This document shows positions 10,144 to 29,550 of a stretch of DNA of 30,453 nucleotides, in pieces. This DNA is from a virus. Lineage: Duplodnaviria; Heunggongvirae; Uroviricota; Caudoviricetes. The notes under the pieces were generated by a model, which made no database searches, was not told the DNA's origin, and saw only the letters and a list, made by a program, of their open reading frames with translations. Every line of letters starts with the position of its first letter. Within the stretch, counting starts at the first letter, position 1. Location: positions 1-30,453 of the IMG/VR virus record IMGVR_UViG_2563366799_000004. One strand, given 5' to 3'. The position numbers were made by a program, and so were the translations under genes.

Positions 10144-10231
10144 CGCGCTCGCGCGCGCAACAATATCGCCGCTGGTTGTCGCCTGAGTCCGACAAAGTGA
10201 AGGCTTTGCGCCTTCCGGCCGCAAAGGGAAT
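10144..10231. promoter_or_regulatory. Late promoter region between P and O: TTGT-N12-ACAA dyad (10176..10195), (GC)n tract (10150..10158), second dyad CTTTGCG-N9-CGCAAAG (10204..10226)
   Basis: The TGT-N12-ACA dyad is the known Ogr/Delta-dependent late promoter element of P2-like phages; it sits between divergent P and O. Confidence 0.55.
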
Positions 10232-14302: not shown

Positions 14303-14782
14303 ATGAAAGAACCATCATGGATTGTTGAAGGTCGTAAATATATTGGTGAAAAGGAAATTAAAGGGCCAGAGCATAACCCGCTAATTTTACAGTTCTGGAA
14401 GGATATAAAACGAGGCGGTATTAAGGACGACGAAACGCCGTGGTGTGCGGCTTACGTTGGGGGAGTGCTGGAACGTTCAGGTATCACATCAAGCCGCTTT
14501 GAATCAGCCGCATCTTATCTTAATTGGGGGGTGAAGCTGGATAAACCTGCATATGGTTGTGTGGTGGTATTCAGCCGTGACGGCGGCGGTCATGTTGGCT
14601 TTGTTGTTGGTCAGCAGGCAAATGGCGATTTGATGGTACTGGGTGGAAATCAGAGTGATGCGGTGAATATCCGTGCGTTTTCTACATCGCGGGTATCTGG
14701 ATATCGCTGGCCGAAAGATATTCCTGTCGATGTTCAACCATTGCCGCAGCTATCCGGTACGCGCTCCGTTTCTGAGTCGTGA
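14303..14782 (+). CDS. Endolysin-like peptidoglycan hydrolase (CHAP/NlpC-P60-like Cys-His fold)
   Basis: 159 aa; candidate catalytic Cys (ETPWCAAYVG) and His (GGGHVGFVVG); sits between holin and spanins. Confidence 0.65.
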   Translation: MKEPSWIVEGRKYIGEKEIKGPEHNPLILQFWKDIKRGGIKDDETPWCAAYVGGVLERSGITSSRFESAASYLNWGVKLDKPAYGCVVVFSRDGGGHVGFVVGQQANGDLMVLGGNQSDAVNIRAFSTSRVSGYRWPKDIPVDVQPLPQLSGTRSVSES

Positions 14783-14790
14783 TCATGTCT

Positions 14791-14862
14791 AACCGTGCTG
14801 GCCGTGCGTATCGAGCGCGGTCATTTTTGACAGTGCTCCAGCACGTACGGTAATGACAGTGC
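14791..14862 (+). repeat. ~70-bp repeat element, copy A (partner at 21314..21385)
   Basis: About 80% identity to copy B over ~70 bp in the same orientation; nested inverted repeat ACCGTGCTGG...CCAGCACGTACGGT. Confidence 0.7.
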
Positions 14863-14883
14863 GAGCTGGCGAGAGGTTTAGAT

Positions 14884-15414
14884 ATGGGGTTGTCACGCTG
14901 GAAAGTGATCGTTTGTCTTGTGCTGGCCGCTGCTGCTGTATGGGGTTTTAGCCACTGGCGTTACAGCGCCGGTTACGGTGATGCAGATCAGCACTGGCGT
15001 GAAAAGTGGGCGCAACGTGATGCACGCGACGCCACCGCGCTGGCGCAAAGGCAGGCTGAGGCCAGGACAGAAGAACAACGCCGACAAGGTGAAATTGATG
15101 CGATCAGAAAACAAACCAGTCAGCAGCTTGCTGGCGTGCAGGCTGCTGCCGATCGTGCCAGTGCTGTTTCTCGTGGGCTGCACGCCAAAGCCGACGAACT
15201 CGCCAGAAGACTGGCAGACCGTGAACGTGCCTGCGGTGCCGGAACTCCCGGCAGAAGCGAGGCAAAAGCCAGCGGTGCCGCATTGCTTGCCGACCTGTTT
15301 AAGCGGGCTGACGAGCGAGCGGGGGAACTGGCAAGAGAAGCTGATGAAGCAAGAGCCAGAGGATTAGCCTGTGAGGCTGCGTATGATGCGGTTAAGTCCG
15401 GGGGGAATAAGTAA
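14884..15414 (+). CDS. lysB: Inner-membrane spanin (Rz / LysB-like)
   Basis: N-terminal TM segment, Arg/Ala/Glu-rich coiled-coil region; embedded +1-frame lipoprotein gene. Confidence 0.8.
   Translation: MGLSRWKVIVCLVLAAAAVWGFSHWRYSAGYGDADQHWREKWAQRDARDATALAQRQAEARTEEQRRQGEIDAIRKQTSQQLAGVQAAADRASAVSRGLHAKADELARRLADRERACGAGTPGRSEAKASGAALLADLFKRADERAGELAREADEARARGLACEAAYDAVKSGGNK
15098..15367 (+). CDS. lysC: Outer-membrane lipoprotein spanin (Rz1 / LysC-like), embedded in lysB
   Basis: ATG 15098 in the +1 frame of lysB; signal peptide with lipobox LVGC; proline-rich mature part. Confidence 0.75.
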   Translation: MRSENKPVSSLLACRLLPIVPVLFLVGCTPKPTNSPEDWQTVNVPAVPELPAEARQKPAVPHCLPTCLSGLTSERGNWQEKLMKQEPED

Positions 15415-15908
15415 TGCTTAAACCCGATTTACTGCGCCAGATGATAAGCCAGCATGTGCCCTGGCTGCGCGAAAATCCCGATAATATGGCGGTTTATCTG
15501 CGAAAAGGTCGTATGGTCAGCACCGGCCAGCGTGCTGCTGCGTTTGAGTATCGCTATACGCTGGAAGTGCTGGTGATGGATTACCCTGAATCTCTGGATA
15601 CTATCAGCGTGCCGGTGCTGGCATGGGCGCGCTTATATCAGCCTGATCTGTTGTTTAACCCGGACAGACAGCAGAACGGCATAACATTCGAAGCCGATAT
15701 TCTGAGTAACAGCACGATGGACGTACTGATCCAGATTCAGGCTGATGAAGCGGTAATCGTCACCCGTGAAGATGGCGAGATCGTCACCAGTCACCGTGCT
15801 GACCCTGCACCGGGGCCGGAAATTGGCGCGTGGTCACTGGTATTTGTTGATGAGGTCAGCGGCGAAACATGGCAGGACAACAAACCGATCCCCTCTTCCA
15901 GCAGTTAG
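15414..15908 (+). CDS. R: Tail completion protein R (P2 gpR-like)
   Basis: 164 aa; ATG overlaps the lysB stop (TAATG); position as in P2. Confidence 0.8.
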   Translation: MLKPDLLRQMISQHVPWLRENPDNMAVYLRKGRMVSTGQRAAAFEYRYTLEVLVMDYPESLDTISVPVLAWARLYQPDLLFNPDRQQNGITFEADILSNSTMDVLIQIQADEAVIVTREDGEIVTSHRADPAPGPEIGAWSLVFVDEVSGETWQDNKPIPSSSS

Positions 15909-19174: not shown

Positions 19175-20456
19175 ATATTATGCCGTGCTAACCAATGTGG
19201 GCGCGGCGAAACTGGCAAATGCCACGGCATTGGGTGCGCAGGTTGAAATCACCCAGATGGCTGTAGGCGATGGTAACGGCGTGTTGCCGACGCCGAACCC
19301 GGCACAAACGGCGCTGGTTCATGAGCTGCGCCGCAAGCCGCTTAATAGTCTGAGCATTGACCCGAATAACGCCAACCAGATTATTGCCGAGCAGGTGATA
19401 CCTGAAGACGAGGGCGGGTGGTGGATCCGTGAAATCGGTTTATTCGATAAAGACGGCGATATGATTGCCGTAGCCAACTGTGCGGAAACGTATAAGCCGC
19501 AGTTACAGGAGGGAAGCGGGCGCGTACAGGTTGTACGCATGATCCTGATTGTCAGCAGCACCGCTGCCGTAACGCTGAAAATTGACCCTTCGGTAGTTCT
19601 GGCAACCCGACAGTATGTTGATGATCAGATCATCCAGGTGAAAAGCTATGTTGATCAGAAAATGGCAGCGCATGTAGCTGCGGCTGATCCGCATAAACAA
19701 TACGCACCAAAAGAAAGTCCCGCTCTTACTGGCAGGCCGACTGCGCCAACGGCGGAAGGCAAAGATAGTTCTACTCAAATTGCAAATACAGCTTTCGTTC
19801 AGGCTGCTATTGCTGCTTTGGTTGGCTCTTCGCCTGAAGCGCTGGATACGCTGAATGAACTTGCTGCGGCTTTGGGTAATGATCCTAACTTTGCTACCAC
19901 CGTAACAAATTCACTCGCTGGAAAGATGGATAAATCGGCAAATGGTTCAGACATAGAAAACGTTTCTGTTTTTCTACAAAACCTTCGTTTGGGAGCAGGC
20001 GCACCAGCTATCGGTATTCCGTTCTTCTGGCCGTCCTCGGCGATGCCCAATACGGTAATGACTGAATGGGCTGATATGGTGTTTCTGAAGTTCAACGGAG
20101 CCACATTCTCAGCGTCGAATTATCCAAAACTCGCTCTGGTGTTTCCTGCATTAACACTGCCTGAATCACGGGGTGAATTTCTTCGTATCTGGGATGACGG
20201 GCGCGGAGTTGATGCAGGCCGCGGCCTGTTAAGCGCTCAGGGTTATGCCTATCAAAGCCACTCGCACCGATTGCTCATGAGCGCAGGTAGCGCAGGGAGC
20301 GGCAATGTTATTGGTATTGATGGTAGTTTAAATGGAACGCTCACTTACAACATTAACCAACCAGGCGGCGGGCAAATTCAGGCGATTGAAAATGCAGGCG
20401 GCACCGAAACACGCCCACGTAACATTGCATTCAACTTTTTAGTAAGGGCTAAATAA
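19164..20456 (+). CDS. H: Tail fibre protein H (short variant, ~430 aa)
   Basis: N-terminus (KYYAVLTNVGAAKLANA...MAVGDGNG) matches the conserved P2 H baseplate-attachment region; start set at GTG 19164 with GGAG SD; C-terminal half divergent. Confidence 0.8.
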   Translation: MATKYYAVLTNVGAAKLANATALGAQVEITQMAVGDGNGVLPTPNPAQTALVHELRRKPLNSLSIDPNNANQIIAEQVIPEDEGGWWIREIGLFDKDGDMIAVANCAETYKPQLQEGSGRVQVVRMILIVSSTAAVTLKIDPSVVLATRQYVDDQIIQVKSYVDQKMAAHVAAADPHKQYAPKESPALTGRPTAPTAEGKDSSTQIANTAFVQAAIAALVGSSPEALDTLNELAAALGNDPNFATTVTNSLAGKMDKSANGSDIENVSVFLQNLRLGAGAPAIGIPFFWPSSAMPNTVMTEWADMVFLKFNGATFSASNYPKLALVFPALTLPESRGEFLRIWDDGRGVDAGRGLLSAQGYAYQSHSHRLLMSAGSAGSGNVIGIDGSLNGTLTYNINQPGGGQIQAIENAGGTETRPRNIAFNFLVRAK

Positions 20457-21049
20457 TGAAACCTGTTTTCGATGAAAATGGACTGGCAACAGAACCGGGT
20501 GAAATCCGGTGCTATTACTACGACGCGGTGACGTTTGAATACATGGGATGGTCTGACGAATATATTAATACTGGCGTAAGTATGCCCGCCTGTTCCACTG
20601 GTATTGATCCTGGCGAAAACATTCCGGGAAGAGTGGCAGTATTTACAGGTAAGGGATGGAGCCATGAAGAAGACCATCGCAATGAGACTGTTTACTCAAT
20701 CGAAAATGGCGCAGCTGTTACAGTGGATTATATCGGTGCCATCAAAGACGGTTATGTCACGATTTCACCGTTAACGCCATACGATAAATGGGATGGTGAG
20801 AAATGGGTGACAGACACTGAGGCACAACACAGTGCCGCAGTAGACGCGGCAGAAGCACAGCGCCAGTCACTGATTGATGCAGCAATGGCTTCCATTAGTC
20901 TGATTCAGCTGAAATTACAGGCCGGGCGGAAACTGACGCAGGCAGAAACAACCCGACTTAACATTGTGCTGGATTACATTGACGCGGTGACGGCAACAGA
21001 TACCAGCACCGCGCCTGATGTCATCTGGCCTGAACTGCCGGAGGCGTAG
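20456..21049 (+). CDS. G: Tail fibre assembly chaperone G (Tfa family)
   Basis: 197 aa; ATG overlaps H stop (TAATG); C-terminus ...DTSTAPDVIWPELPEA is the Tfa signature. Confidence 0.85.
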   Translation: MKPVFDENGLATEPGEIRCYYYDAVTFEYMGWSDEYINTGVSMPACSTGIDPGENIPGRVAVFTGKGWSHEEDHRNETVYSIENGAAVTVDYIGAIKDGYVTISPLTPYDKWDGEKWVTDTEAQHSAAVDAAEAQRQSLIDAAMASISLIQLKLQAGRKLTQAETTRLNIVLDYIDAVTATDTSTAPDVIWPELPEA

Positions 21050-21260
21050 GCCATTCAATATCGGGTGCTGTTGACGTATCAACACGCATCAGCAGCACAC
21101 GGTATTTCTTCCATTGGGTGAGAGTTGAAGTTTCTTCATCAGTTGCGATACCAGCATCAACAGCATCCTGTCGCCAGGATATTTCAGCATCTGCTTTTGC
21201 ACGAAGGGTGGCTTTCATGTTTGCAGCGTCGGATTTTTGTTGTTCTGGCGTTCGCGGTGG
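21021..21260 (-). pseudogene. Truncated tail fibre assembly (Tfa) C-terminal fragment, convergent with G
   Basis: Minus-strand frame ends ...YRVLLMRVDTSTAPDIEWPTPP, the Tfa C-terminal signature; N-terminal half absent; the first ~30 codons of track ORF 21021..21347 read through the repeat element and are not Tfa-like. Confidence 0.65.
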
Positions 21261-21313
21261 TTCATCAACCCCAGCGACCAGAGATAAGAATTCCGGCACG
21301 CATGGCCGGTTAT

Positions 21314-21385
21314 AACCGTGCTGGCCGTGTGTATCGAGTACGATCACTTTTAACGGTGCTGTAGCACGGTCAGTTATGGTGGTGT
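21314..21385 (+). repeat. ~70-bp repeat element, copy B (partner at 14791..14862)
   Basis: AACCGTGCTGGCCGTG(T/C)GTATCGAG... shared with copy A; nested stem ACCGTGCT/AGCACGGT. Confidence 0.7.
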
Positions 21386-21400
21386 ATTACGGAAGACGAA

Positions 21401-21423
21401 GCGGGCAATGGCCCGCTTTTCTT
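21401..21423 (+). terminator. Rho-independent terminator between G and U
   Basis: GCGGGC-caat-GGCCCGC hairpin followed by TTTTCTT on the plus strand; abuts the U stop codon. Confidence 0.6.
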
Positions 21424-21871
21424 ATATCGAAAGGTTGGTTTTCACCAGAGAGAAGAGATCGTCGGTGGTGGTTTCAGCCAGCTTTTCCCGTATGTCCTCG
21501 CTTACCCGTTTCAGGTTGAGCGTGAAATCAATTTTCTTTGCCTTCCCGTCCTTAAAAAACTCCGTCCGGTTTTGCGTGATCTGCTCAATTACATACATGC
21601 CGTAGATCCTGCCCGTGCCTTCTATCAGGGGCCACGGGCGCCCGGAAAAAGCCATAGTTTCCAGCATGACAAGCGACACATCACCGCCGCTTATTTCGGG
21701 GTACAGCGTGCCGCTGAGTACGAACGGTTCTTCATCTGCGCCGATGAACTGATAGCGCGGGGATTTCCCCACGCGATCGTTTTTGACGTGCCGCCAGGAG
21801 TTGGTTTTATTCGCACTCTGGTAAGGTGTGGTTTGCAGTGAAAAGGGGAACATCCCCAGAATCATCATCAT
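21422..21871 (-). CDS. U: Tail protein U
   Basis: 149 aa; immediately downstream of T on the minus strand, as U follows T in P2. Confidence 0.8.
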   Translation of the reverse strand: MMMILGMFPFSLQTTPYQSANKTNSWRHVKNDRVGKSPRYQFIGADEEPFVLSGTLYPEISGGDVSLVMLETMAFSGRPWPLIEGTGRIYGMYVIEQITQNRTEFFKDGKAKKIDFTLNLKRVSEDIREKLAETTTDDLFSLVKTNLSI

Positions 21872-27094: not shown

Positions 27095-27143
27095 TTGTCA
27101 GCAACCTGCAACAATGACGGGGCGTTGTTCATGCGCGCGCGCG
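27095..27143. promoter_or_regulatory. Late promoter element centred between divergent FI and D: TTGT-N12-ACAA followed by GCGTTGTTCAT(GC)5
   Basis: Perfect dyad 27095..27114 centred at 27104.5; intergenic midpoint 27102; alternating GC tract 27133..27143 on the D-proximal side. Confidence 0.6.
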
Positions 27144-29264: not shown

Positions 29265-29442
29265 TGAGTACCCTCCGTATTAAGGCGGGTATTATTGTCG
29301 ATGGTGCTCAAAAACGGAACAGCCAAGCGCGGTGCGCCTGGCTGCTTCTTTGTCGAAGTGTAGTCAAAATGTAGACGAAGTTTAGAATAAATCCTTTTAT
29401 TCCATTATGTTACTGGCTGGATTTCTTCACCATCCCTGTCTT

Positions 29443-29469
29443 CCCCCACATGATGTGGGGGTTTTTTTT
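29443..29469 (+). terminator. Orphan rho-independent terminator with no upstream same-strand gene
   Basis: CCCCCACA-tga-TGTGGGGG hairpin followed by TTTTTTTT; the nearest upstream plus-strand gene ends at 28590. Confidence 0.6.
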
Positions 29470-29550
29470 ATCCTCAATTTGCCTGCTGCTTAATGCATTG
29501 CAGATGATTTGCTTCCGTTATACTAGCGTCAGTTGATAGCGGGAGTATTT

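Follow-up and report, generated by a model that had tools for sequence, protein, structure and literature searches.

A three-hairpin repeat at module borders of P2-like prophages, with a tentative role at mRNA ends

What is a short conserved sequence doing at the point where two gene blocks of a prophage converge, and why does the same sequence recur between two of its lysis genes? The stretch of DNA analysed here (the window, 30,453 nt in its full length) raises this question through a pair of repeat copies: copy A between the endolysin gene and Rz, and copy B between the tail-fibre genes and the tail gene U. The preliminary description of the window proposed that copy B either marks a recombination breakpoint or insulates convergent transcription units from each other.

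The two copies and their neighbours

The window represents a prophage of E. coli that belongs to the P2-like phages (Peduoviridae). Among phage records it is closest to Salmonella phages SEN4 and SEN5, of the genus Senquatrovirus, whose U gene shares 95.6% DNA identity with that of the window, and E. coli chromosomes carry near-identical prophages beside fieF. Genes of the left part run in the order int, C, early genes, A, Q/P, O-N-M-L-X-holin-endolysin-Rz-R-S, and V-W-J-I-H-G; in the right part the minus strand carries U-T-E-FII-FI, after which D and ogr follow on the plus strand. Near the prophage end, positions 29351–29472 match Enterobacter phage phiT5282H (L002, 9180–9301, within its cpdA-int interval) at 96.7% identity over 122 nt, while the two are otherwise ~65% identical; this interval is probably the attachment-site region.

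A repeat search returned a single long direct repeat in the window, pairing 14790–14855 with 21313–21378 at 80% identity over 66 nt. When a covariance model built from relatives (R1) was run over both strands, it matched exactly two places, both on the plus strand. Opposite-strand scores were no higher than 9.3 bits, at the copy A site, and none was listed at the copy B site. The two-copy match is far above chance and bears out the earlier recognition of copy B as a repeat of copy A, although the extent first given for copy B (21314–21385) lies inside the element and lacks its first hairpin. Coordinates of the copies and of surrounding features are collected in Table 1.

Table 1 Features of the window around element copies A and B.
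Feature	Position	Strand	Basis and remarks
Endolysin gene (TIGR02594-type), variable, 5' of copy A	14303..14782	+	PHROG 1259; CX12 annotation
Element copy A, filling the endolysin-Rz gap	14772..14875	+	R1, 74.7 bits, E ~4e-18
Rz-like spanin gene, conserved, 3' of copy A	14884..15414	+	PHROG 312, E 2.4e-48
cix/gix-like invertase crossover site TTCTACAAAACCTTCGTTTGGGAGCA, where the constant part of H meets the variable part	19972..19997	+	Alignment with L026 TTCTACAAAACCTTGGTTTAGGAGAA
Tail-fibre assembly gene G/Tfa, final gene of the V-G operon	20456..21049	+	PHROG 105, E 2.5e-83
Inverted C-terminal remnant of a second tail-fibre assembly gene (Tfa')	21021..21269	-	PHROG 188/105, residues 27-107 only
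3'-end remnant of a serine (Hin/Gin-type) invertase gene	21270..21315	+	Pseudogene in E. coli CX12; homology to L026 restarts here
Element copy B, full extent	21295..21398	+	R1, 91 bits, E ~1e-22
Copy B, hairpin 1 (HP1)	21300-21305 / 21316-21321	+	Helix columns of alignment A2 mapped onto the sequence
Copy B, linker GGCCGTGTGTATCG	21323-21336	+	
Copy B, hairpin 2 (HP2), loop CTTT	21337-21346 / 21351-21360	+	A2 helix columns
Copy B, hairpin 3 (HP3), loop GTTA	21363-21372 / 21377-21386	+	A2 helix columns
Predicted V-G operon terminator between the convergent operons, hairpin GAAGCGGGCAATGGCCCGCTTT then TCTTAT	21398..21419	.	Terminator scan; G+C-rich
Tail gene U, final gene of the FI-U block	21422..21871	-	PHROG 76, E 1.9e-64

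PHROG matches and the terminator scan confirmed that copy B sits at the junction of a Tfa remnant, a terminator and the inverted U gene, as had been described. To its left are the inverted Tfa remnant and the final ~45 nt of an otherwise deleted invertase gene; to its right are the terminator and the stop codon of the convergent U. The Tfa remnant belongs to an open reading frame at 21021–21347 on the minus strand, in which matches to tail-fibre-assembly families are confined to residues 27–107, corresponding to 21027–21269. The terminator has a good T-tract on the plus strand only, and many contigs, as well as SEN5 and phiT5282H, have conserved it along with the element.

Recombination around copy B

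Copy B lies where the V-G block meets the inverted FI-U block, and could for that reason of position at the G|U junction be read as a scar or marker of the rearrangement that inverted FI-U, which is how the preliminary description saw it. We searched viral contigs with U proteins, confirming 579 relatives and retaining 80 loci. Tfa/H is convergent with U wherever tail-fibre genes were detected beside U in these 80 loci, and D never follows U. The inversion is thus common to the retained loci, yet the covariance model detected the element strongly in only ~27 of them and weakly in another ~5, with ~45 having none; one of the element-free loci (L190) has ~47 nt separating the stop codons of Tfa and U. 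Named phages give the same picture, with FI-U on the strand opposite V-G and D in place in SEN5, phiT5282H (Novemvirus) and Klebsiella phage 3LV2017 (Reginaelenavirus). The FI|D junction of the window, which is the other end of the inverted block, holds no inverted element copy. Conversely, phages with the canonical H...FI order, one from Rahnella (L098) and one from Escherichia sp. ESNIH1 (L114), carry the element without the inversion, the element occupies five other kinds of site, and SW5, which has a different tail module, carries it as type C only. These comparisons indicate that the FI-U inversion is ancestral and that the element is not its marker. They effectively refute the idea of an inversion scar, to which we attach hardly any probability.

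The proposal of a breakpoint at copy B nonetheless contains a correct observation, that of a junction in the immediate vicinity. In the nearest relative compared (L026, 99.7–99.9% identical), homology to the window is lost just after the crossover site in H at 19972–19997 and is back exactly at 21270. The gap in homology therefore delimits 20001–21269 as a swapped tail-fibre module, with the crossover site as its left breakpoint. The module comprises the variable part of H, Tfa and the inverted Tfa remnant, and stands in place of the 2.65-kb invertible tail-fibre segment and invertase of relatives. As judged from this alignment, the true recombination junction is at 21269/21270, 25 nt left of copy B, and it stems from the tail-fibre module swap and not from the FI-U inversion. 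The same swap also destroyed the inversion switch.

Both sides of the junction preserve parts of that switch. On the right is the invertase remnant, overlooked in the preliminary description, whose last codons (NSGTHGRL*) extend into the element and end with a TAA stop at 21313–21315; in L026, L078 and others an intact invertase of 193 aa has the same end point. On the left, Tfa' is a leftover of the invertible tail-fibre segment, and paired Tfa genes are likewise found in SfIV, pro483 and others. Across the dead switch as a whole (19972–21315), the crossover site in H and the Tfa' fragment survive. Missing are the right crossover site, the second variable segment of H and the invertase gene apart from its last ~45 nt. 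In relatives with 99.7–99.9% identity in the flanking DNA, the 2.65-kb switch is intact. Crossover sites of the hix/gix/cix type were defined as a 26-bp imperfect dyad, TTCNNNCAAANN NN NNTTTGNNNGAA. None lies within the element itself, and cix-like sites adjoin it in L090, L093, L142 and L150.

Distribution, folding and conservation of the element family

Instances of the element were collected by BLAST and two pattern scans of viral contigs and phage records, giving 96 instances (70 unique). Another 25 genuine instances occur in species-representative bacterial genomes, all from Enterobacterales, and the same scan produced ~4 chance matches elsewhere. Among complete E. coli genomes 36 of 5426 are positive, and the positive ones have the element at a median of two places. 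The patterns demanded ATCG[AG]G and GTGCT, so that the invariance of these motifs is partly built in, and the unbiased sets are the BLAST hits and the U-anchored loci only. Copies A and B belong to a family of non-coding elements of ~100 nt in one clade of P2-like (Peduoviridae) phages of Enterobacterales. Rfam 15 yielded no match at gathering thresholds, and a permissive search only chance-level ones (E 1.5–6.6). The literature on P2 hotspots, as far as it could be searched, contains no description of the element.

Six intergenic contexts are recorded for the element in P2-like prophages of Enterobacterales, if the interval between tail fibre and U is counted once for its two orientations. 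Context A is the gap between endolysin and Rz, where three unrelated endolysin families fill the upstream slot. In context B the element lies 3' of Tfa or the invertase and is followed by the terminator and convergent U. Context C is 3' of the replication gene A or of a 185-aa ORF that terminates within the element, and 5' of a gene for a 230-aa DNA methylase. Element copies of context D lie 3' of U and co-oriented with it, either adjoining a cix-like site or abutting the Tfa stop. Context E is the S|V gap, with the element on the strand opposite the late genes, and context F is downstream of ogr, beside int. The interval from H/Tfa to FI in the canonical P2 order (context G) is occupied in the Rahnella and ESNIH1 phages mentioned above. 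In contexts A to C the upstream flank is variable and the downstream flank constant. Most contexts are operon ends or P2 variation hotspots, and several of the sites are known variable hotspots of P2-like phages. This variation of the upstream flanks lends partial support to the earlier reading of copy B as lying at a rearrangement boundary.

Two placements merit separate mention. In the ECONIH4/Dryocola lineage (L093, 18054–18150; L104, 1332–1431), the S|V copy opposite the late genes overlaps the last codons of S. A near-identical copy convergent with an integrase gene, beside an 889-aa ORF, was seen at 956–1057 of L097 and in L100, L109 and L115, in a mobile element that may be a P2-like phage. 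The contigs are attributed to Kluyvera, Candidatus Erwinia dacicola, Izhakiella and, probably through contamination, a 'Bacillota' MAG.

The element consists of three similar hairpins in tandem, with stems of ~9–10 bp (AGCAC.GTCA / TGAC.GTGCT) and loops of 4–5 nt, and a conserved single-stranded linker of 14–16 nt, GGCC[A/G]T..GTATCG, separates hairpins 1 and 2. It is composed of alternating 10-mers, TGAC.GTGCT and the complement AGCAC.GTCA, so arranged that mutually exclusive pairings are possible; in degenerate form the 10-mer has seven matches in the window against 1.05 expected. An A at 21343, specific to the window, disrupts a G:C pair that is intact in HP2 of the closest relatives.

Two fold models were counted on an alignment of 54 diverse copies and compared with shuffles (n = 500) uncorrected for relatedness. 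Model 1, with the three local hairpins, has 74.5% of its cells paired, and its covariation of 0.211 exceeds the 0.178 ± 0.007 of such shuffles (0/500 reach it), as do its double-sided changes (71 versus 49 ± 5); it is also clearly better than slid registers. Model 2, a terminator-like fold in which the GGTCA segment pairs upstream ahead of the T-run, shows no excess covariation, with 439 of the 500 shuffles reaching its value. In a closer set of sequences RNAalifold chose the long-range helix, albeit weakly (-5.6 kcal/mol) and with 0 compensatory pairs, and support for the hairpins emerged only once diverged copies were added. Most stem changes are one-sided transitions. The covariation supports local hairpins over the terminator-like fold, and because the controls ignore relatedness we take the hairpins as supported, not proven.

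Diverged copies retain HP2 as its loop changes from TTTT to GATC, CTTC or AAATC, and stems change by way of G:T intermediates (GTCA/TGAC, GTCA/TGGC, GCCA/TGGC). Copy A folds to -41.3 kcal/mol (z -3.2) on the plus strand, against -27.7 (z -1.1) on the minus strand. HP2 of type A has 22 G:T and 0 A:C mismatches. In two S|V copies, which are inverted relative to the late genes, the counts are 4 A:C and 0 G:T on the strand of the model, which corresponds to G:U in the mRNA; HP1 and types B and D give mixed counts. This strand evidence modestly favours hairpins that form in the local transcript.

Conservation of the element exceeds that of the structural genes around it. Between the window and phiT5282H, identity reaches 87% across the 143 nt of copy B plus terminator, compared with 65–68% at the DNA level for FI, D and U, which we take as evidence of constraint. 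Copy A contains an arginine-rich ORF of 22 codons (14786–14854, ATG at 14786; MSNRAGRAYRARSFLTVLQHVR) and copy B a similar peptide in the same frame, a small-peptide reading that we rejected on finding the frame not conserved in relatives. Copies of the SEN5 type have no start codon for this ORF, and type C carries a 1-nt indel in the most conserved stretch. We therefore regard the element as non-coding, given a frame-shifting indel and no conserved start codon.

The element rearranges in place. Between the same two stop codons, those of Tfa and U, it has the orientation of the window in 18 U loci and is flipped in nine, including L141 and L142, whose U is 94% identical to that of the window; elsewhere it is located between co-directional genes. 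Insulation, the other role named in the preliminary description, may yet apply. The HP2 module alone is flipped in L177, L012 has a deletion between 8-nt direct repeats, and L092 has lost most of HP2. Enterobacter bugandensis L121 (4750–4927) carries a tandem duplication, with two units upstream of the methylase gene, and Klebsiella phage 3LV2017 (L088, 9130–9256) a partial repeat of HP3. A replication-polar signal was discarded as a candidate, being contradicted by the ECONIH4/Dryocola lineage, in which orientation relative to gene A and to the genome is reversed. Filled and empty endolysin|Rz sites differ by replacement of a segment that includes the N-terminus of Rz, with no duplication and no clean insertion; a MITE-like mobile element was likewise rejected, this comparison offering neither a clean empty site nor a target-site duplication.

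Candidate roles at module borders

We tentatively favour, at somewhat less than even confidence, the view that the element is a stem-loop array which, once transcribed, serves to protect, process or insulate the ends of mRNAs where modules or operons end. The element would be co-transcribed within phage operon mRNAs and would work as RNA. Its hairpins might block 3'-to-5' exonucleases, or the array might be a point of processing or partial termination, so fixing the 3' end of a message, or the limit of one of its segments, on the downstream side of an often-exchanged module. Transcripts of variable cargo, or of a convergent operon, would thereby be kept apart from neighbouring conserved genes. 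As the nearest conserved sequence to the right of several variable slots, the element would also end up as the right-hand crossover region for module swaps, which would help to keep it homogeneous. An action on mRNA ends is consistent with the contexts of the family, the 87% conservation, the hairpin covariation, the loop changes, the strand bias and the non-coding status. Against it, stem sequences are more conserved than a simple exonuclease barrier requires, and the asymmetric linker has no explanation in such a role. With a canonical terminator within 12 nt 3', copy B is presumably not needed for termination at its own site.

The most serious alternative, though in our judgement unlikely, is that the element has no role in gene expression and is a recombination linker or selfish palindromic repeat, junk of the REP kind that intergenic DNA tolerates, kept uniform as a patch of shared homology at the right border of modules or as palindromes spread and rearranged via template switching. 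In favour of this reading, upstream flanks vary and downstream flanks are constant, several independent hotspots are occupied, the module-swap breakpoint is 25 nt from copy B, and the element rearranges in place (whole flips, the HP2 flip of L177, the losses in L012 and L092, the duplications in L121 and 3LV2017). Against it, hairpin pairing is kept with covariation, and high identity ends at the terminator and U stop instead of tapering into coding DNA. Genomes have only one or two copies, at orthologous sites, and the endolysin|Rz comparison shows segment replacement instead of clean insertion with target duplication. A site acting at the level of DNA, either a cluster of palindromic binding sites for a phage or host protein or a single-strand signal for lagging-strand initiation in P2-type rolling-circle replication, we regard as improbable. 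The five 10-mer copies in alternating orientation form 24-bp near-perfect palindromes, stem sequence is conserved besides pairing, and both copies of a genome are co-oriented in the lineages examined. Yet orientation is reversed in ECONIH4/Dryocola and between close relatives with 94% identical U, compensatory paths through G:T suit a single-stranded hairpin better than a duplex protein site, and no candidate binding protein was identified.

Termination itself must also be weighed. As a conditional intrinsic terminator or attenuator, the element would pair its GGTCA-ending segment with the upstream TGAC.GTGCT or TGGCCGTGC ahead of UUUUU, and the alternative hairpins 1 and 2 would allow read-through, perhaps depending on a ribosome that stops at the upstream stop codon in or beside hairpin 1. 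The terminator scan does flag 14799–14823 of copy A followed by TTTTT (9-bp stem), type A copies without exception pair the long-range helix at 9/9 positions, ~21 of 25 copies collected with a pattern that put no constraint on the loop retain the T-run, and hairpin 1 contains the stop codons of the invertase, of the 185-aa ORF and of two types of endolysin. On the other hand, this helix lacks covariation and is poorly paired in types B and C, and diverged copies keep HP2 but replace the T-run. Copy A would moreover terminate inside the late O operon, upstream of the essential R and S, with no Ogr-type TGT-N12-ACA following it before 15649, a position in R; and between Tfa and U the element is present in both orientations. 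A conditional terminator is thus a possible reading for type A, unsupported across the family by these comparisons, and overall we consider it less probable than not by a wide measure.

Known systems offer partial parallels to the favoured action on mRNA ends. REPs stabilise upstream mRNA against 3' exonucleases. Like REP/BIME sequences of E. coli and Salmonella, the element is a cluster of imperfect palindromes in intergenic DNA, presumably transcribed, found in either orientation and prone to local inversion, deletion and duplication. Unlike them, it shows no similarity to their consensus (compared by eye), has one or two copies per phage genome as opposed to hundreds per chromosome, is confined to P2-like prophages, has a fixed order of three hairpins with a conserved asymmetric linker, and is associated with no RAYT-type transposase. 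Of the features by which REP/BIME are recognised, it shares extragenic palindromic clustering and occurrence in both orientations, not high copy number or consensus similarity. The RNase III sites of T7 (R0.3, R1.1 and others) and lambda sib are co-transcribed hairpins, repeated in phage operons, that define stable mRNA 3' ends. The element resembles the T7 sites as a set of similar hairpins repeated at several intergenic positions, and copy A is predicted to be able to fold into an irregular hairpin of ~26 bp; it differs from these sites and sib in having no Rfam or sequence match, and types B and C do not preserve the extended duplex. With intrinsic terminators and attenuators it has in common a G+C-rich stem before a T-run, location at operon ends and mutually exclusive pairings. 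The stem and U-tract pattern is present in copy A and weakly so in copy B, with a helix that does not covary; in contrast to such terminators, the T-run here is the loop of a covarying hairpin, dispensable in diverged copies, and sequence conservation is far above the usual. In its proposed manner of working the element would resemble REP/BIME units or the T7 RNase III sites.

A further parallel is with integron attC sites and the linkers of mosaic lambdoid phages, where a structured palindrome or short conserved sequence lies directly 3' of exchangeable genes and marks the border at which modules cross over. It invites a more speculative proposal, to which we give little credence at present: a portable bistable 'cassette end', of RNA or single-stranded DNA, that would insulate operons from upstream cargo and serve as a recombination handle for exchange between hotspots and genera. 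Such an end might sense a ribosome terminating on the stop codon inside hairpin 1, its handle might serve the exchange of endolysins, tail-fibre sets and defence cargo, and it would be a phage counterpart of attC without a dedicated integrase. An integron attC proper was rejected. The inverse core sought at the 5' end was RYYYAAC, and copy A begins with GTCTAAC, but neither copy ends in GTTRRRY, and by eye the ends do not fit the R''/L''-L'/R' core with that motif; no integron integrase is present, nor an extra tyrosine recombinase near the element. In the window the junction lies 25 nt outside the element, which differs from attC and linkers in this respect and in showing no evidence of site-specific recombination at the element.

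P2-like prophages are a main reservoir of anti-phage defence cargo, which they carry in few hotspots, and how cargo is swapped without disturbing phage gene expression is not understood. A non-coding element more conserved than the structural genes, bordering several of these hotspots on their downstream side and likewise the endolysin and tail-fibre slots, makes a concrete candidate for a border or insulator. Should it prove to be merely a palindromic hitch-hiker, it would still be a useful marker for delimiting modules and annotating the clade.

Promoter motifs were scanned for as well. A sigma-70 promoter was rejected for both copies, with no scan match and hexamers and spacings that are poor by eye, and resemblance to CRISPR repeats is fragmentary, also by eye, so that mimicry of such repeats was set aside. 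The Ogr-type pattern TGT-N12-ACA has five matches in the window against six expected, among them the expected positions 10177, 16515 and 27096, and none at either element copy, which excludes an Ogr-type late promoter of this form there. A match at 15649–15666, inside R and downstream of copy A, may be chance. The match at 27096–27113 is a single Ogr-type dyad, TGTCAGCAACCTGCAACA, midway between the divergent genes FI (start 27023, minus strand) and D (start 27181, plus strand) and ~55 nt from plausible start sites on either side, so that a single activator site might act on both of the promoters to which the FI-U inversion gave rise.
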